Source: a virus
Taxonomy: Duplodnaviria; Heunggongvirae; Uroviricota; Caudoviricetes
Reading direction: 5' to 3' (one strand)
IMG/VR virus record: IMGVR_UViG_2703718817_000003
Length of the DNA: 64,000 bases
A program made the translations under genes and the position numbers. Position 1 is the stretch's first letter. The number at the start of each line of letters is the position of its first letter. The notes beneath the pieces were generated by a model. It saw only the letters and a program-made list of their open reading frames with translations, searched no databases and was not told where the DNA came from. Below, piece after piece: positions 4,001 through 14,905 of this stretch.

Positions 4001-7000
4001 GAGAAAAAACCATCGAGGAGAACTCACAGCAAGCTGTCTTTAATGCTGTGGAAATGGGGCGTCTTGACCTGGCGTCTGGTAAACACCGTGATGCGCAGAA
4101 GAAGAACAAGATTAAGGATCAGGCCGCGAATACCGGTACAACGAAGAAGCAGAATATCCCGTACTTTGAGGATATGAACTTCGATAGCGTGATTGCCGAC
4201 GAGGGGCATAACTACCGCAACTCCTTTAATGCCGGGCGTGAAGCGGGACAACTGGCATATTTGCCTAACCCGGCAGTATCCAAGATGGCCCGCGACATGG
4301 CTGTAAAAGCTGCGTACATGATGAAACGCAACAACGGGCGTGGTGTAGTCATGCTGACGGCAACTCCGCTGGTGAACAGTCCGATTGATGCCTTCAACAT
4401 GCTGTCTACTGTCATTCCGCAGGAAGAGTGGATGCGCATGGGCATTATTACGCCGGATGATTTCGTTCGCGTGTTCGGCAAAACAGCCACAGTTCAGGTT
4501 CAGAAAATTTCCGGTGAGGTGGAAGAGAAGCAGGGGCTGGTGGGCTTCCAGAACCTTGATGGTCTGCGTGGTATTTTCCACCGTTGGACCACTCTGAAGA
4601 CTGCCGCAGATGTCGGAGCGACGGTTAAAATTCCCGACATCATCGAGAACACCTTGCAGATCCCGATGACAGGGGAGCAGGAGGCTGCTTATGAAGAGCT
4701 TCGTAAGCGTGCTCAGGAGTTAAGTCGCAATGATGAGCTGACAGTCGATGAAAACGGGCATATCACTAACGACAAACCGGATGATTTCATCTTCTCCATC
4801 ATCCGCGACATGGATAAGGTTGCTATAGATCCGGATCTGTATGCCAGTGCGATTACATTCCAGTTCCCCGTTGAGCTTGCAGACAAGGTAAAAGCTATTG
4901 CGGATGCCCTGCCAAAAGTCGCAGGCGGTAAAGTGGCAGATGATGCAGACGAGGCCGAAGAAGACGGCGCTGGTGGACTGGTCAGTACGCGTACCAGCAA
5001 GGTAGTGAAGACCACCTTTAGTGAACATCCGGCGCATGTTGAAATACGCGCCAGCATTGAACTGGAAGCTGAAATACTGAAGGCCATTGCTGCCGCCGGG
5101 ATTGATCTGCAGCAGGTATCACACCCCATCCCGCCGAAGTATGCCGCGCTGATCGAAAACCTTCGTGAAGGTTTGAAGAACGGTAAACAAATTGTCTTCA
5201 TTGATGAAAAAGCCCAGCACCAGAAGCTGCGCCGTATTATCGCCAGTGCACTGCAAATGCCGGAGCAGGAGATAGGCATTATCAATGCGACGACCGTTAG
5301 CCAGGCTGGCGGCATCAAGCTGAAGAAGGTGAATAAGCCGACTGAACCTACTCCGAATAAAAACGGTGAATACAAAGAAGGGGCATGGGAAACCTACTAC
5401 AGCAAACTTGCCCAATATGAGGATTATCTCTCAGCTAAAAATGATGCTGGCCTTGAGGGTATGGAAGGCATTGCCGCCGACTATAACGAAGGGCGCACGC
5501 GCATCATTATCTGTAACAAGAAGGCTGAAGTAGGTATTAACCTGCATATCGGGACAACCGATATCCACCACCTGACACTACCCTGGACACCAGCCAGTAT
5601 CGACCAACGAAATGGGCGCGGTGCGCGCGTAGGTTCACCGCAAGAGAAGGTCAATGTTCACTACTATTGTGGCAAAGGCACATTCGACGACTTCCGTCTG
5701 GATACGCTGAAACGTAAGAAAGACTGGATCAAGATGGTGATGACCTCCGACATGTCAGAGATCGCCAATGGTGATGCGGATGATGCTGATGAACGCGCCA
5801 TTATGCTGGCGGCAAACCCGGAAGAACGCCGCGCAATCATGGCTCGCCAGGCGCAAGAGCGCGAAGAACGTCTGAAACTGAAAGCACAGCGCGAGGCCAA
5901 CAATGCTCTCGATATCTACCTGAAAGCGGCAAACGCCGCTGGAAAAGATATCGGCATGATGGAGACAGAACTGAAAAGCGCGATGGAACAGATAGAGTAT
6001 TACCAGCGAAATCTTGACGACCTGATAAAAGCGGGTACGAACAGGAATGGGCAAAAATTCGCGCTTGAGCAGTTGAGTAGCTACAGAAAACGTGCGCGGG
6101 TGCTGCGGTTTGCGATCACCAGGGCAAAAGACGCGGATACCATAATGAAACGCTCTCGTGGTGATGTGGAGCGAGCTATTAAGTCTGGTGTGCTGGATAT
6201 CAGTATCGATGTTATTCAGAACCCACAGGAATATATGCGCACTGACAAGAATATCCTGTTGCATAAAGGTAGTTATTACCGTGCAGTCATTGATGATCGC
6301 GAAACAACAGCGATTGTCCGGGTGGAAAAAATTGACGGTGAAAAAGCACAATACCTCTGCCGTATCGCCTGGCTGGATAGAGCAAGTCGTTACGCTCGAT
6401 CACCGGGGTCAATCGTTACATTGCCGTTTGACTCTGTGATTGAAGCGGTAACTTTTGAAGAGGGGGTAGCTGAATCGCGCGCAACGGCTGCGCGTGGTGT
6501 TCAGTGCCACCAGCTATCAACAATACTTACTCGCGATCAGTTCTATGATGCTATTCGCAATGGGGTAATGAATGTTATTGCTGGTAAACCTGGTAATGCA
6601 TGGGGCGGTGGGTCAGCTATTAAATACTGGGCATATCGCACAGATGATGGTCAGATCGCGCTGTCATCGGCCTATGATGGCGTGATAGGCCAAAAAATCG
6701 GGCGAGCATCGGATATAGCACCTGAACGATGGATATATCCAGATGGCAACGATGAGGCGCTGAAGCGTGAAGTGGCAAAAATACAAGCCAGTGATAACCC
6801 GCTGAATATCGTGGACGGCGAGGGATTCCTCCAGGCATTGTATGGGTATGATTACATCCAGGGAATGCAGGCATGGGGCGCACAGGCAACGATGGATGAT
6901 GTTGTCCAGGAGTTCGAAAACTGGATGGCTGGGCGTGGTCTGTCAGGTCGTTCGCTTAATAAAGTCACTTCTGAAGATATTCTTAGCTTGTTCCGCAAAC

Positions 7001-8645: not shown

Positions 8646-8831
8646 AAATAACAAGTTGGGTAAATGACATACAATTTACCCGGCTTGTTGACCCGCATCA
8701 CCATTTACTCTAAAAACAAGTCCGACCTGTTGCATCCGCTTATCTCTTCAGTAGTATTCCCCTCGGTTTTGATAAAACTAACGCTCTTGTTATTATCGTT
8801 TTCATGATTTCAGGAAGTTTGTGTTAGAAAT

Positions 8832-9910: not shown

Positions 9911-11119
9911 ATGAGTCAGCAAGTAGAATCATCAAGCCTGGAGATCATCTCAACCGCAATTGAAACGCTGCGGACACAAATCGCGCTTATACAGAAACGA
10001 AATCCGGGCGATGACCTGTCAAAGCGACTGCATGAGAGCGTCATTGCCACTACAGATAACCTGGTGGCGGAAATCAACCAGCTCCTTGATGATGGGGCAG
10101 TTGATTACAATAAGCTGGTGGATCAGTTTGAGGAGTATCAGCAAGCCGTTAATGATGGCTTGATCCGTTTTTCTCAAGTCACTGGTGTATCAGCGACAGT
10201 TGAAAGCCTGGGGGATGCAGTTAATCAATTTGCCGCGAATATGCGTAATGAGATCGGCAATCTGGAGGCGCGTCTTGAGCAGGCAAATACACTGCGCAAA
10301 TCTGCTGAAGTCGATTTGAGTCGTTACAAAAAAGACTATCCGCCAAGCCTGACAAAACGACTGGATGTTGCGGAGAAAGATAACCGCACGCTGAAAAGAG
10401 AGCGTCGCGAACTAAAAGAGCGTTTAACCAAGCTAAATCAGCAATGCGTTGAGTATCAAGGCGAACTCGTCACACTGCGTAAAAAGTTAGCAGCGGCGCA
10501 GAGCATTATTGAAACATTGAAACGAGAGTGCTCAGAGCTTGGTCATGATCTGAATCGCGCCTGTGGCATGGGGCAAAGGCCAGAGACATTCCCGCTAATG
10601 TATGACGGAAGAGAAGCTATTGCCTATATCCATGAGTTTCCGCATGGTCTGGTCGCGGAGACTGGGCAACGTGGCGAAGCGTTGCTGACGGCAAATTACC
10701 ATCAGCAAATCAGAACCAGCCGCCTGCTGACGATGGATGTGATCCCGTCAGTATGGGGAACGCCGCTTTACTACCGAATTCCTGGCTTCGAAACTGACTG
10801 GAATACCGACATAGACGAATGTCTGGCAGATAAAATTATGGCGTACCTTGAAACGGATTTTCCACGCTTGCATCGCCGGATTATGGACTCTAAGGATGCA
10901 CCGATCGACGAATTGAAAATGCGTCCAGAGACGTTGGAGGCAATCAAGCAGACTGAGTTTGATACAGTGTTCAGTGTGGCCTGCATTCCAAGCAGCTTTC
11001 ATGAAAGCATTCCGTTCATGCAGGGCGATCGCCGTCAGGAAATAATTGATGCTTGCCGGGTATGGGCGAACGAGTGGGATAAGAAGAACGGTGGAGTTGA
11101 AAATCTTTACGGGAAATAA
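9911..11119 (+). CDS. hypothetical protein, N-terminal coiled coil
   Basis: 402 aa ORF with good ATG context (gaaagggaacaaacATG); heptad-rich N-terminal half; bracketed by operator-like motifs. Confidence 0.55.
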   Translation: MSQQVESSSLEIISTAIETLRTQIALIQKRNPGDDLSKRLHESVIATTDNLVAEINQLLDDGAVDYNKLVDQFEEYQQAVNDGLIRFSQVTGVSATVESLGDAVNQFAANMRNEIGNLEARLEQANTLRKSAEVDLSRYKKDYPPSLTKRLDVAEKDNRTLKRERRELKERLTKLNQQCVEYQGELVTLRKKLAAAQSIIETLKRECSELGHDLNRACGMGQRPETFPLMYDGREAIAYIHEFPHGLVAETGQRGEALLTANYHQQIRTSRLLTMDVIPSVWGTPLYYRIPGFETDWNTDIDECLADKIMAYLETDFPRLHRRIMDSKDAPIDELKMRPETLEAIKQTEFDTVFSVACIPSSFHESIPFMQGDRRQEIIDACRVWANEWDKKNGGVENLYGK

Positions 11120-11120
11120 T

Positions 11121-11152
11121 ATGTTAGAAAATTAAAATTGTTTTTCTAACAT
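11121..11152. promoter_or_regulatory. Inverted pair of operator-like motifs (ATGTTAGAAAATTAA ... TTTTCTAACAT)
   Basis: Near-perfect palindrome directly after the 9911-11119 stop. Confidence 0.5.
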
Positions 11153-11980
11153 ATTGATTATGGGGTTAACTTAACATAGAATTTTTCGTGCTGGTGGGGA
11201 GCTTCCCATGTCGCTTGCGGGTTTGATAGTCACTTCATTGTCTTTCCCCACCAGCATCAAACAAATTTAAGTGTTAGAAAGTAAATTTTAAGGTAAGGGA
11301 AAGCTCCGGCACCGTGCAAATACATGCCCGGCAGGTTTAGTGCGTAAAGTGGCTTCAGCGAGAGCATTTTACGGAGTAAACGACAGTGACTTGAGCCACG
11401 GAAGGTCTTTTTATGGTGTTCATTGATGATGATCTGGCAGTGAGTATGTTAAGTGGGCCAGGCTGCATCGGGTCATCATCAGTGCACATCCTCAACGTTA
11501 AGGAGGCGCAGAGTTGGGTTTTCCTCTTATTTTGCTGACTCTGAGTCTCCTTAACGTTGCGGTAATGCACCTATGCGGATGTGGCCTTGCATTGTGTCTT
11601 GAAAGAATGGGGTAAGGCCGGGGATATCCCCAGGGGGAGGCACCCCCGCTGCAACGAACAGCCACAGACGGCAGTCGAGTGATGGAAACGTGCAAAGACT
11701 TTAAACCTCGTTACGGCTGGCGTGGCAAACGCGACAACCGAGACAGAGCGGTGACGGGCGGAGAGAGAGCCGCTTCAAGATAAAAGCCGACTATGGATTC
11801 CTTTCTGCGGGCCTTTGAAAGTGAATCTTGCTCAGGCAGTCGGCTTTTATGTTGATACGTAGCGATAGCCGCGACAGGCGCGGCGGCAAGTATGGCGGGG
11901 TAGTGACTCCTTCCCCCTTATGACGCCGATTTGCCAGGCTGGCCATACGCCTAAGTGGCAATACCGCGAGTGGGATATTT

Positions 11981-12006
11981 GCCCACCTTCGGGTGGGTGT
12001 TTTTTC
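11981..12006 (+). terminator. Rho-independent terminator
   Basis: CCCACC-TTCG-GGTGGG stem followed by TGTTTTTTC, inside an ORF-free region. Confidence 0.55.
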
Positions 12007-12466
12007 AGGGTTTTCGTCATGGTTAGCGACTTTGCGGCGGTTTAGAACCCGACCATTAAAGTAAATGCAAACGATGATCTGATGATGGTAGCGGCCTAAG
12101 AAGCCTGACGCCACGGGGTATGAGTCGTCCCCCGTCAAAAAATCGACCGCAGAGTGTCCCCGTCTGTGTATTAGGGAACGGGGAGGCATAACAGGCAAGG
12201 GCGCTGGTGTGATTAACCAGATGAATGAGAAGGGTCAGGTCTTTCTGGTCAGCGCCCTTACCTGTTACGTCCTTACCGCGTAACAGCCATTGGTTAATGG
12301 CTTTCTGGAATAATGTCTTGTAACGGGTATATCCCGTCATGCTGAAGGCGCTAATCACGCTGGAAGCCAGGGTTATGCATCCCCTGTTACCGAATTGCAG
12401 CCAGGGCGCGGTGCGCCGAAAAGCATACGGAGGTGGAAGCCCTCGCCGGAGACGTACCCGGCAAGT

Positions 12467-12543
12467 GATGGTGTAGCTCAGTAGGATAGAGCAGCAGCCT
12501 TCTAAGCTGTCGGTCGGTGGTTCGAATCCACCCACCATCGCCA
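12467..12543 (+). tRNA. tRNA-Arg (anticodon UCU)
   Basis: Manual cloverleaf: acceptor GATGGTG/CACCATC, D-arm GCTC...GAGC, anticodon loop CTTCTAA, T-arm GGTGG-TTCGAAT-CCACC, encoded CCA. Confidence 0.8.
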
Positions 12544-12548
12544 ATTTA

Positions 12549-12635
12549 GGGGAGTTAGTCCGTAGGGGTAGCGGGGTAGACTGTAAATCTACTGTCATTG
12601 CGACTCGGATGGTTCGACTCCATCACTCCCCACCA
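12549..12635 (+). tRNA. tRNA-Tyr (anticodon GUA), class II with long variable arm; D-arm atypical
   Basis: Acceptor GGGGAGT/ACTCCCC, anticodon arm GTAGA-CTGTAAA-TCTAC, variable arm TGTCATTGCGACTCG, T-arm GATGG-TTCGACT-CCATC, CCA encoded. Confidence 0.6.
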
Positions 12636-12639
12636 AATT

Positions 12640-12715
12640 GCCGGTTTAGCTCAGTTGGTAGAGCAGTCGCTTTGTAAGCGAATGGTCAGCGGTTCGATCC
12701 CGTTAACCGGCACCA
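12640..12715 (+). tRNA. tRNA-Thr (anticodon UGU)
   Basis: Acceptor GCCGGTT/AACCGGC, D-arm GCTC-AGTTGGTA-GAGC, anticodon loop TTTGTAA, T-loop TTCGATC, CCA encoded. Confidence 0.85.
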
Positions 12716-12903
12716 ACACAACAGGTAAGGGTATTTTGCGACATCGGAGATCGCCGAGCTTGGCAGAGGGTTCGAATCCCTACGAAGTACCCTTGCCGTT
12801 GTGATGAATGCACAGGCTGATGTGCCGCAACTACAGTAGTGCGCGCTTTGCGGGGCTTGCTACAACCCTGTGTCGGAGTTCAGCACCGACCATCACAATC
12901 ACT

Positions 12904-12990
12904 GGAGAGTAGGGAGCATGGTGCTCAAGCGGTCTTGAAAACCGTCCCATTGCGCAAGCGATGATGGTTCGATTCCATTACTCTCCGCCA
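12904..12990 (+). tRNA. tRNA-Ser-like (anticodon UGA), class II; D-arm noncanonical
   Basis: Acceptor GGAGAGT/ACTCTCC plus GCCA; anticodon arm GCGGT-CTTGAAA-ACCGT; long variable region; T-arm GATGG-TTCGATT-CCATT. Confidence 0.55.
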
Positions 12991-13419
12991 GCGCAACGTT
13001 AAGAGTATTTGGCTAATTAAGCGAATGCCGGAAGCAGAACCGGATCACCAAATGCGTACAGGCGTCATCGCCGCCCAGTCAGCCAAATGCTCTTACCATT
13101 GCGGTGAATGCGGCTAAGCGCACGCGGAACAGTTAAAACAGTAAAGGTGGTCTTTTTACTGGCGTAACGAGCATCCATAAGTGATCCGGCGTTAATTGTT
13201 AACTGGTTAACGTCACCGGGAGGCACCCGGCACCGCAACCTAACAGCAATGGCGTTTTGTCTTAAAAGGTGGCTGCAAGTGATGGATTTTTGGGCGTTTG
13301 CCGATAAAAACCCGGAGTGGACATTATTGTTTCTGCTGGTGGTTGCATACGGGGTAGAGCAAGCGGCAAAAGCCTTACGCGGTTCTGGCAAAAAGCGTAA
13401 GCGTAATTAACAGTAATCT

Positions 13420-13495
13420 GGCCCTTTAGCTCAGTGGTTAGAGCGGGCGACTCATAATCGCACGGTCACCGGTTCAAGTCCGGTAGGGGCCACCA
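13420..13495 (+). tRNA. tRNA-Ile2-like (anticodon CAU, lysidine type) or tRNA-Met
   Basis: GGCCCTTTAGCTCAGTGGTTAGAGC...CTCATAA...GGTTCAAGTCCGG...AGGGGCCACCA; closely resembles enterobacterial ileX from memory. Confidence 0.75.
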
Positions 13496-13949
13496 CATTT
13501 GGTTGTAACACGGCGTATGGCACATGCGTCGTTAGCGGTCTGGTGTAGCTGTTAGGTGCCTTACTAACACTGCATGGGCACACCAGGTAGCCGGAATGTG
13601 CAAGTCACCGTTGGAGGGATAGCGGACTCAGGGACTCACCATCCTGGCGATTCGGTGTGACAGCCGGAATAGCACGGCGTACAACAGGAAAAGGTGTTTA
13701 ATTAATACGAGCGCCTTCTCCGTTGTGGTAATTGCGGCTATGCGCTCGTGACGAAGCCATTTTCATTCACTACGTTCTGATAAGTGTCGTCGCCGGGCGT
13801 GGCTAACCTGGCAGGTGGAGGCACCACCGCCACAACTCCTTTCAATTCATCATATAGCCGCTCAGGCTGTAACCCTTAATTAATACGAAGTTACGACGTC
13901 ACTACCGGTTCAGCCGGGGGATAGTCGCGCGTGTAAAAAAGGAGACGTT

Positions 13950-14525: not shown

Positions 14526-14905
14526 TGTACGAGGCTACTAAATTACGCATTGAGGATGCGATGCACATTGGTTGGGACATCATCACCTGCAAGATAACAT
14601 CATGCAAGGCTACACGCACAGACGCCGGACACAAGAGCACAATATCAGGTTATGTCGTGATGTCAGTCAGGAGTGTGCGCATACGCTTCAGATGGAAAGC
14701 CTGCCAGGTTACATCATCAATGCCGCTTACCGTCGAGCAGGATTACTTATGCTTACCTGAAATAGACGGAGCGTTGCTGGTGGGTAATAGTGGTCGAAAA
14801 GCCGATTTTGAAGCCAGTCTGAAGATGGCCCAGACGGTGATCAACAAACATAAAGGGAAGTGGGAGGCAAAAGTTAAGCATGTTGTTCGTTTATCCCGCT
14901 GGTAG
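14522..14905 (+). CDS. hypothetical protein
   Basis: 127 aa ORF overlapping upstream stop by 4 nt (ATGA). Confidence 0.45.
   Translation: MMYEATKLRIEDAMHIGWDIITCKITSCKATRTDAGHKSTISGYVVMSVRSVRIRFRWKACQVTSSMPLTVEQDYLCLPEIDGALLVGNSGRKADFEASLKMAQTVINKHKGKWEAKVKHVVRLSRW

Follow-up and report, generated by a model that had tools for sequence, protein, structure and literature searches.

A non-coding leader upstream of a phage tRNA cluster

The window analyzed here is a 64-kb stretch of DNA that, judged by homology, is a D6/P1-type phage-plasmid. This report concerns its positions 11120-12466, which are bounded by a pmgS-like head gene (9911-11119; phrog_1660) and a five-gene tRNA cluster that begins with tRNA-Arg at 12467. 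An initial annotation, made from the letters alone, had described this stretch as hairpin-dense and free of open reading frames (ORFs), with a terminator of its own, and had proposed that it specifies one or more structured non-coding RNAs or a long tRNA precursor leader. The best-conserved element of the stretch is none of the hairpins cited there. It is an approximately 180-nucleotide (nt) element on the plus strand, 12008-12184, that resembles the mRNA-like half of a transfer-messenger RNA (tmRNA).

The 11120-12466 stretch is 98% identical to plasmids of approximately 90–94 kb from E. coli and E. marmotae; against phage D6 the identity is 89.7%. The right half of the stretch (11860-12466) is 86–90% identical to P1 (68729-69347), P7 and SJ46; the window, P1 and D6 are nearly identical from approximately 11976 to the tRNA (12466), and the sequence upstream diverges. 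The homologous P1 DNA is the leader of the ban operon, which extends from the promoter Pban and the bivalent C1 operator Op72ab to the first tRNA. By this comparison, 11120-12466 is a mosaic non-coding leader of a tRNA operon, the counterpart of the P1 ban operon. Both leaders occupy the same slot before the tRNAs, and in both a bivalent operator overlaps the promoter. They differ in that the window operator is of the D6 type and not the P1 C1 consensus, and in that the window slot comes after pmgS, not after dmt. The sole annotation over the P1 leader (GenBank NC_005856) is a ‘dicF-like region’, with the tmRNA-like element left blank, and the D6 record carries no annotation over the homologous stretch.

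In agreement with the initial annotation, no convincing protein-coding gene was found, and the course of the stretch, from an operator-controlled promoter to the first tRNA, fits its proposal of structured RNA or a long leader. Plus-strand ORFs are all 45 amino acids (aa) or shorter, and one of 33 aa (11682-11783) had no homologue outside D6. Minus-strand ORFs of 65–180 aa are present; the Pfam search of these gave zero matches, the 180-aa ORF crosses two tRNA genes antisense, and indels of 1, 2, 4 and 10 nt occur across them among relatives. Homologues were also checked for an intact protein gene, which the initial annotation had named as evidence that would contradict it, and none was found. 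The stretch is non-coding in all relatives, and the hypothetical proteins annotated over it in SJ46 and a few plasmids are probably spurious.

These annotations, together with the one PHROG match among the ORFs (phrog_27020, 68 aa, 12137-12340, minus strand, E = 2e-46), could suggest that a small minus-strand protein gene explains the conservation of the region. We consider this scarcely credible. The ORF is frameshifted and divided between two frames in P1-type relatives, in which the DNA itself is conserved, it has no Pfam match, and conservation in unrelated phages covers only the plus-strand tag and pseudoknots described below.

Tag frame and structure of the tmRNA-like element

The element comprises the following features:

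12008-12066, plus strand: 5’ domain, with conserved GCGACUUUGCGG and UUUAGAA motifs
12067-12099, plus strand: tag frame, ANDDLMMVAA-stop (GCA AAC GAT GAT CTG ATG ATG GTA GCG GCC TAA)
12086-12113, plus strand: P5-like hairpin with the stop codon in its loop (12086-12088 pairs with 12111-12113, and 12093-12095 with 12103-12105)
12114-12147, plus strand: pseudoknot A (stem A, 12114-12118 with 12130-12134; stem B, 12124-12127 with 12144-12147)
12148-12184, plus strand: pseudoknot B (stem D, 12148-12153 with 12163-12168; stem C, 12157-12162 with 12179-12184)

The tag frame has no start codon and no Shine-Dalgarno sequence, and an in-frame UAG lies 8 codons upstream, within the invariant UUUAGAA. 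The tag is identical in the window, P1 and D6. Other phages carry ANDDVVLMAA, ANEEMYLAVA, ANDEQFLAVA, ANDNEFKVAA and more, as compared to ANDENYALAA in E. coli ssrA. Ten sense codons and a stop are present in all 36 distinct nucleotide versions (184 instances), and of these, 35 have stops in one of the other two frames and 30 in the remaining one. Of the 25 changes that separate close relatives, 17 affect the third codon position, and at the codon level 16 changes are synonymous and 9 non-synonymous; in one member (L132) GCA AAC has become GCT AAT, retaining Ala-Asn. Comparison of these versions shows the tag frame to be under coding-type selection.

The nucleotides preceding the frame are also conserved. 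The 5’ domain ends in an A/U-rich linker, UAAAU, which gives U(-5) and A(-4) before the resume codon. Among the 123 instances listed, all have A at -4 and 121 have U at -5, as counted with an anchor search pattern that does not contain those positions. In E. coli tmRNA, the nucleotides at -5 and -4, U85 and A86, set the reading frame (PMC2481249). When aligned to E. coli ssrA, a profile of the family matched the tag only, with resume codons and stops in register. The RNA family search that the initial annotation had suggested placed no Rfam tmRNA model at threshold, either in the stretch or across 16 related loci. It did return a sub-threshold match, the best Rfam signal over the tag string UAAAUGCAAACGAUGAU...GCGGCCUAA, to tmRNA_permuted (24.1 bits, E = 0.014; threshold 47); beta_tmRNA scored 10 bits against a threshold of 84.

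To test the secondary structure, 48 cluster representatives (45 distinct) were aligned with MAFFT, without fitting to any structure; the covariation counts come from this alignment and not from a covariance model, and are conservative. For the stop hairpin and pseudoknots together, 90.8% of cells were paired, compared to 38–43% with the partners slid. Fifteen of 24 pairs changed on both sides, compensatory cells numbered 110 versus 33 expected, and none of 500 shuffles reached the observed values. The P5-like hairpin was paired in 100% of cells, with 4 of 4 pairs changed on both sides. Stem A, also found independently by RNAalifold, was paired in 99.6% with 3 of 5 pairs compensatory (CGGGG/CCCCG, CAAGG/CCUUG, UGAGG/CCUCA), and stem B likewise showed compensatory sets (GUCG/CGAC, CCGA/UCGG, CCAG/CUGG, CCAA/UUGG). 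The helices of pseudoknot B were 92% and 78% paired on the sequence-only alignment, with 5 pairs compensatory. The covariation analysis proposed in the initial annotation therefore yields at least one RNA with compensatory support across 45 distinct sequences.

The 5’ domain could be closed by a helix, read by eye, between GGGUU (12008-12012) and AACCC (12046-12050). This is plausible; the helix is AGUUU/AAACU elsewhere, and SUSP2 has a 7-bp version, UUAGUUU/AAACUAA. It is the only plausible helix, and a PK1-type pseudoknot in this domain is at most a candidate. The second helix considered, CUUUG/CAAAG, is not preserved among N4-like and Ackermannviridae members, and SUSP2 lacks its 3’ strand.

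Distribution of the element among phages

The element is nearly invariant in P1, D6 and this plasmid. When the conserved block was used in BLAST searches, its first 190 nt matched unannotated intergenic DNA of unrelated virulent phages. BLAST with a majority-type query found the element in 752 of 50,697 phage records. Its hosts include Ackermannviridae, Ounavirinae (Felix O1-like), N4-like Gamaleyavirus, Drexlerviridae and Caminolopintovirus-type siphoviruses, as well as lambdoid phages, SSU5, and Aeromonas and Erwinia phages. Of 5426 complete E. coli genomes, 660 also carry it (at 582 places on plasmids and 140 on chromosomes), and two exact-pattern scans of IMG/VR each matched at least 120 contigs. 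In GenBank/RefSeq the element is almost never annotated, being left blank or overlaid by hypothetical proteins.

In lambdoid prophages the element occupies the late leader, with the Q antiterminator gene on one side and the holin gene on the other; in one such prophage it comes just after a tR’-like terminator. Copies in virulent phages are found in tRNA arrays with a strong promoter of their own approximately 10 nt upstream. In STGO-35-1 and SUSP2, for instance, a near-consensus sigma-70 promoter ends approximately 7–15 nt before the element, and the downstream neighbors are a hairpin module and then an ordinary tRNA. Some copies occur in contexts without any nearby tRNA. To judge from these positions, the element sits in transcription units active in lytic growth.

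The distribution bears on two explanations that deny the element a tmRNA-related role. It might be part of a plain precursor leader, the structure of which does no more than stabilize the tRNA precursor and punctuate it with RNase P, E and III sites, the likeness to tmRNA being meaningless. The stretch does end exactly at the 5’ end of a tRNA, hairpin modules recur between RNA units of related phages, and several hairpins are invariant and hence without covariation. However, the element is conserved over unrelated phage families and in tRNA-less contexts, sometimes has its own promoter, and carries a coding-type constraint, which makes the plain-leader explanation improbable.

The element might instead be a functionless, decaying fragment of a captured bacterial ssrA. 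It does correspond to only part of a tmRNA, and phages commonly carry ssrA pieces acquired from integration sites (PMC4131195). Integration-derived pieces are 3’ ends, however, not tag regions. Furthermore, the exact motif is confined to 4 of 185,579 species-representative bacterial genomes, in none of which it is a tmRNA gene, so the element was not copied from some host’s ssrA. Together with the compensatory changes and the 752 phage records, this largely refutes a decaying fragment, which we regard as highly unlikely.

Comparison with known tmRNAs

The tag frame, frame-setting nucleotides, stop hairpin and downstream pseudoknots of the element correspond to those of a tmRNA. No tRNA-like domain was found in cis by ARAGORN, Rfam or a T-arm scan, applied to 47 cluster representatives and the whole window, and for lack of this domain the element does not belong to the tmRNAs proper. 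The window’s sole T-arm outside a tRNA, at 12766, has no CCA after it.

The element and one-piece tmRNA (RF00023) both resume at a GCA codon with no start codon, encode a 10-codon tag of the ANDENYALAA type, have U at -5 and A at -4, place the stop codon in a hairpin loop, and continue into H-type pseudoknots. The element differs in having no acceptor stem, T-arm or CCA, and hence no alanylation in cis or entry with SmpB/EF-Tu. It is approximately 180 nt long versus 363 nt, its two compact pseudoknots are unlike PK2–PK4 in sequence, and it is encoded by phages or phage-plasmids in the leaders of tRNA or late operons. Two-piece permuted tmRNA (RF04321, RF01849-51) likewise places the tag template on an RNA apart from the acceptor piece, but its coding piece keeps the 5’ acceptor strand and pairs with an acceptor piece encoded just upstream. 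No such complementary acceptor piece was found for the element. A P2-like closing helix formed by strands of the upstream and downstream hairpins was rejected because each flanking hairpin co-varies within itself; the flanking strands pair inside their own module, as with GGGC/GCCC in L005, where the next module differs.

The nearest phage-borne case is the partial tmRNA of mycobacteriophage DS6A (PMC4131195; PMC11915505), which keeps the tRNA-like domain without a tag, whereas the element keeps the tag and pseudoknots without the domain. All phage tmRNAs listed in the tmRNA database papers have a tRNA-like domain, including the domain-only case of DS6A (PMC4131195). No description of the element was found in full-text literature, the coverage of which was incomplete, and an earlier description may exist. 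By these comparisons, the element is a tmRNA-like RNA made of the mRNA-like half only and is not described in the searchable literature.

Proposed function

The features above suggest the following course of events. Transcription from the operator-overlapped promoter (11097-11182) would be on in lytic growth and off in the prophage. The leader is a chain of modules: the D6-lineage part, the dicF-locus module with an attenuator at 11980-12005, the 180-nt RNA, a hairpin, and the 3’ block. RNases that process tRNAs and cut hairpins would free the 180-nt RNA from the precursor, and ribosomes would read its tag frame during infection. The RNA would thereby act as an alternative tag template for SmpB-dependent ribosome rescue, and stalled chains would receive a phage tag ending in VAA, MAA or AVA in place of the host LAA. 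The alanyl-tRNA-like function would have to come from elsewhere, either from host tmRNA-SmpB or from a phage tRNA-like RNA.

The statement as a whole, namely a leader containing a stand-alone mRNA-like half of a tmRNA that acts as an alternative tag template, anatomy included, stands in our estimation about evenly between right and wrong. Taken alone, the claim that the frame is read in tmRNA fashion, as an alternative tag template supplied in trans to SmpB-dependent rescue, is possible but falls short of probable. We are slightly more doubtful of the broadest version. In that version, a stand-alone tag-template RNA found in hundreds of enterobacterial phages (P1, lambdoid, Felix O1-like, Vi1-like) rewrites degradation tags in lytic growth via the host SmpB machinery, possibly with adjoining phage tRNA-like long-stem RNAs, as a split tmRNA without a base-paired acceptor.

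Several observations weigh against a tag template. ARAGORN called no tmRNA in the window or in approximately 45 related loci. T-arms lie at no fixed distance from the element, and at least 17 of 47 clusters have none between -400 and +700 nt. In SUSP2 and STGO-35-1 the promoter is directly upstream, and therefore no 5’ acceptor strand or cis partner exists there. Special complementarity to E. coli tmRNA was not found, duplex energies being no better than those of shuffled sequences, and base pairing with host tmRNA was rejected on these energies. The first two and two-thirds codons of the tag were fixed by the first search pattern, a bias that the anchor search removes only partly. Transcripts from the sole detected promoter would have to read through a strong terminator to reach the element, as would those of P1 that reach ban, which is further downstream of the same terminator. 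We know of no precedent for a tag template acting in trans without base pairing to an acceptor piece. Finally, the tag-template reading rests on sequence comparison, with transcript, processing and tagging all predicted.

The missing domain could also mean that the RNA is never translated. As a tmRNA decoy, it would titrate a host factor (SmpB at the upstream U/A, ribosomal protein S1, or RNase R) and thereby dampen or redirect host trans-translation in lytic growth. Canonical use is impossible without a tRNA-like domain, and a decoy needs no partner. The invariant U/A at -5/-4 and the pseudoknots correspond to the S1-crosslink and SmpB-protected sites of tmRNA (PMC2481249). The domain-only tmRNA of DS6A offers a mirror case, as such a molecule inhibits tmRNA, perhaps by titrating SmpB (PMC4131195), and phage RNA mimicry has a precedent in pseudo-ToxI (PMC3475682). 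A decoy does not account for why all 36 versions keep a 10-codon frame and stop, why third-position and synonymous changes are in excess, or why the peptide resembles that of ssrA, although pairing in the P5-like helix restricts part of the tag and could produce some of the coding-type signal. A decoy is the main rival of the tag template and appears rather unlikely.

Alternatively, translation might proceed independently of any tRNA-like domain. The 5’ domain would dock on vacant ribosomes or on stalled ones with an empty A site, and ordinary Ala-tRNA would decode GCA. The product would be a tag or a free 10-residue ssrA-like peptide competing for SspB/ClpXP. The start-less frame, with Ala as its first codon, directly follows a structured domain and an A/U-rich linker, and the absence of a tRNA-like domain is likewise as expected. 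The intergenic-region internal ribosome entry site (IGR IRES) of dicistroviruses initiates with alanine and would be the likeness. To our knowledge this has no bacterial precedent, and the pseudoknot of the 5’ domain is only a candidate: neither N4-like and Ackermannviridae members nor SUSP2 retain the second helix considered for it. This explanation is even less probable than that of a plain leader.

A selected, widespread family consisting of the mRNA-like half only challenges the view that a tag template needs a tethered tRNA-like domain. If the tag is read, as in the tag-template reading, phages would reprogram protein quality control of the infected cell, which would represent a new form of host takeover and a natural delivery of tags in trans. 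If the RNA is a decoy, it would be an RNA inhibitor of ribosome rescue, the counterpart of the domain-only RNA of DS6A. Either way, this is an unannotated RNA in the well-studied P1, in Stx-type and lambdoid prophages, and in Felix O1-like and Vi1-like therapeutic phages, and it is directly testable with existing P1 and lambda genetics.

Control DNA and the left part of the leader

The leader to the left of the element contains the following features:

11097-11182, plus strand: two sigma-70-like promoter matches (TTGAAA-17-TATGTT, 11097-11125; TTGATT-17-TAGAAT, 11154-11182)
11121-11152, no strand assigned: bivalent operator of two 17-bp RTGTTAGAAAAYTAAWT sites, inverted and overlapping (the palindrome 11118-11155)
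11187-11258, plus strand: leader-start hairpin with a 12-bp G+C-rich stem, starting a few nt past the TAGAAT -10 element
11271-11287, plus strand: third 17-bp operator copy, approximately 80 nt downstream of the putative transcription start
11410-11575, plus strand: two overlapping long hairpins with conserved arms and a variable tip with indels (approximately 11508-11545)
11550-11770, plus strand: near-invariant block among D6-lineage relatives (90–98% invariant columns versus 60–80% in the flanks)
11775-11855, plus strand: hairpin with an 18-bp stem, 94% complementary, at the boundary of D6-type and P1-type sequence
11866-11968, plus strand: segment homologous to DNA just upstream of dicF in the K-12 Qin prophage and many lambdoid phages
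11980-12005, plus strand: intrinsic-terminator-like hairpin (11980-11999; 8-bp stem with 5 G-C pairs, UUCG loop) and U6

The left edge, 11097-11290, is control at the DNA level (operators and promoter) and not RNA structure, a distinction missing from the initial annotation. The two promoter matches are the only promoter-like sites within 10900-13600, and they flank or overlap the operator pair. The 9-nt core of the operator, TGTTAGAAA, occurs 14 times in the window versus 0.58 expected. The same inverted pairs, with a 15-bp offset, were found at 14905/14920, 34666/34681 and 39512/39527, and the 17-bp motif is at the same place in D6. The architecture is that of the P1 C1 type, a repeated 17-bp asymmetric site that is bivalent at some promoters, but the sequence differs from P1, and the P1 C1 operator consensus is absent in the window. 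By analogy with Pban/Op72ab, 11097-11182 is probably the repressor-controlled promoter of the operon. Further RTGTTAGAAAAYTAAWT-type copies lie at 8822, 9877, 19369, 20764, 40165, 51156, 59226 and 62240; with the inverted overlapping pairs, these look like a map of the regulon of the plasmid’s C1-type repressor.

The segment 11186-11860 was found only in the D6 lineage and was compared among eight D6-type relatives with approximately 83% identity overall. The initial annotation had cited a perfect inverted repeat around 11191-11255. CTGGTGGGGA (11191-11200) and TCCCCACCAG (11245-11254) indeed pair fully, and an inverted-repeat tool extends the arms to 11184-11200 and 11245-11261. There is no covariation evidence for this stem (11187-11258) because it is invariant in the eight relatives. 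Further long hairpins pair 11477-11514 with 11538-11575, 11410-11432 with 11473-11495, and 11775-11792 with 11838-11855, and a perfect 14-nt palindrome is present at 11118-11131/11142-11155. One compensatory change, A-U to G-C, was read by eye from the alignment in the 11477-11575 hairpin. The 11550-11770 block, which holds the 33-aa ORF, had no Rfam match. A repeated motif, GGGAGGCACCC(C/G)GC(U/A)(G/C)CAAC..ACAGC, follows a short G+C-rich hairpin at 11625-11660, in the D6-type leader, and again at 13210-13245, in an STnc100-like region.

The hairpin density noted initially is borne out by folding, as three sub-regions are more stable than dinucleotide shuffles: 11186-11545 (z = -3.4; 0 of 100 shuffles equally stable), 11545-11860 (z = -2.8; 0 of 100) and 12186-12466 (z = -2.25; 5 of 200). 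Folding of 11860-12006, the segment with the dicF flank, was ordinary (z = -0.7).

Homologues of 11869-11967, with approximately 79% identity, were found in many lambdoid phages and in most complete E. coli genomes (4229 of 5426). The K-12 copy is in the Qin prophage between ydfC and dicB (locus L128 1501-1598), and Rfam places DicF itself at L128 1622-1673, directly after the homologous segment. The window’s ‘dicF-like’ segment was rejected as a DicF small RNA (sRNA), since only the upstream flank is homologous and the DicF model (RF00039) had no match at E ≤ 10 in 11100-12480. The same model found Qin DicF at 76.7 bits. The ‘dicF-like region’ label in P1 thus names the correct locus but the wrong RNA.

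The terminator that had been placed at 11981-12006 is present as a hairpin with U6 at 11980-12005 and, by its G+C-rich hairpin and U tract, is a predicted intrinsic terminator. It is conserved in P1 and D6, occupies the position of DicF in Qin, and closes a module homologous to the dicF flank of lambdoid prophages, a relationship that had gone unnoticed. The two loci are alike in the upstream segment and in having a short, terminator-ended unit at the DicF position, and differ in that the window’s terminal hairpin unit has another sequence. Downstream of tRNA-Ser, the sRNA STnc100 gave a sub-threshold match at 13100-13237 (40.8 bits versus a threshold of 47), and a comparably weak match is found after DicF in Qin (L128 1671-1880). 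Positions 13010-13080 are common to the window and a lambdoid late leader (L129 4415-4490).

Hairpin modules, the 3’ block and tRNA-like RNAs

Two features lie between the element and the first tRNA:

12189-12267, plus strand: long hairpin of the type termed here the H module (5’ AACAGGYAAGRG..., 3’ ...CYCUUNCCNGUU, variable tip), containing the second inverted repeat of the initial annotation
12322-12466, plus strand: P1/D6-specific 3’ block, almost invariant, up to the first base of tRNA-Arg

The second repeat exists, but its left arm ACAGGCAAGGGCGCTG begins at 12191 and not, as had been reported, at 12198, and the pairing is not perfect: against 12250-12265, 15 of 16 positions pair, with one C.A mismatch (12196/12260). 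The tool gives arms of 12189-12206 and 12250-12267, 94% complementary. The closing pair 12189/12267 changes from U-A to C-G among P1-like copies. H modules bracket the tmRNA-like element and other RNA units in many of these phages.

As a family, H modules have related stems (ACAACAGGUAAGAGCAUU... / AUAACUGUGAGAGUAUU... / AUCAAUGAGUACACUU...) and variable cargo, and they recur as punctuation in non-coding RNA regions of lambdoid, P1-like, N4-like, Felix O1-like and Vi1-like phages. Sites include 12189-12267 and 12716-12800 in the window, L129 3921-3990 and 4335-4415, L006 2668-2795, L003 2675-2795 and 3020-3125, L035 10890-10995, and L200 1628-1690. Strand-specific G.U pairs suggest a role at the RNA level, as processing signals or protein-binding stems.

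The module at 12716-12800, between tRNA-Thr and tRNA-Ser, is tRNA-like, unannotated, and uncalled by ARAGORN and Rfam. It has a 16-bp H-type stem around a D-arm-like hairpin (GCGA/UCGC), a 3-bp mini anticodon-like arm, and a canonical T-arm (AGGGUUCGAAUCCCU). The same module is found in P1 (L001, approximately 4770-4860) and D6 (L002, approximately 5350-5440) and in L012, L031 and L068. Its long stem co-varies between phages, and it often adjoins the tmRNA-like element and is absent near many copies. In L068 and L052 the mini-arm loop, AUUGCUA or AUUGCCA, contains UGC, an Ala anticodon. As an alanine-accepting partner the module was not supported, as it has no G3.U70 and no consistent CCA; the acceptor pairs are U3.G70 in the P1 type and G4.U69 in L068. 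The plp coding sequence of P1 (‘putative lipoprotein’, L001 4744-5121, minus strand) lies on the strand opposite to the tRNA-like module (4825-4839), and its annotation may deserve a second look.

Other tRNA-like RNAs were also observed. In phage Bp4 (L004), ARAGORN predictions of Ala(CGC) at 2310-2381 and Cys(ACA) at 2673-2751 flank the tmRNA-like element. Neither reaches the Rfam tRNA threshold, the Ala(CGC) is unannotated in the record, and the pair may represent non-canonical tRNA-like RNAs. For the window’s tRNA-Ser(UGA) (12904-12990), the best Rfam model is tRNA-Sec, at 44.6 bits against a threshold of 47; according to the D6 annotators, tRNAscan assigned no amino acid to the same tRNA. 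Just upstream, 12868-12903 contains a hairpin, GUCGGAGUUCAGCACCGAC, followed by CAUCACAAUCAC, with similar sequences at L006 2865-2895 and several lambdoid loci (GCCGGAGAUCAGCACCGGC then CAUCACAACA at the other loci). The Rfam AgvB model gave no match; the tail after the hairpin resembles the CACAACA GcvB-target motif of the prophage anti-sRNA AgvB (PMC4104026).

The 12322-12466 block was not found outside P1/D6-like genomes and is expected to end at the RNase P site of the first tRNA. That tRNA is tRNA-Arg(UCU) in the window, versus tRNA-Asn at the same position in P1 and D6. Despite the different tRNA, the first approximately 19 nt (12467-12485; GATGGTGTAGCTCAG...) are identical in all three. 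It appears that the tRNA body was exchanged while the 5’ end and leader ahead of it were conserved.

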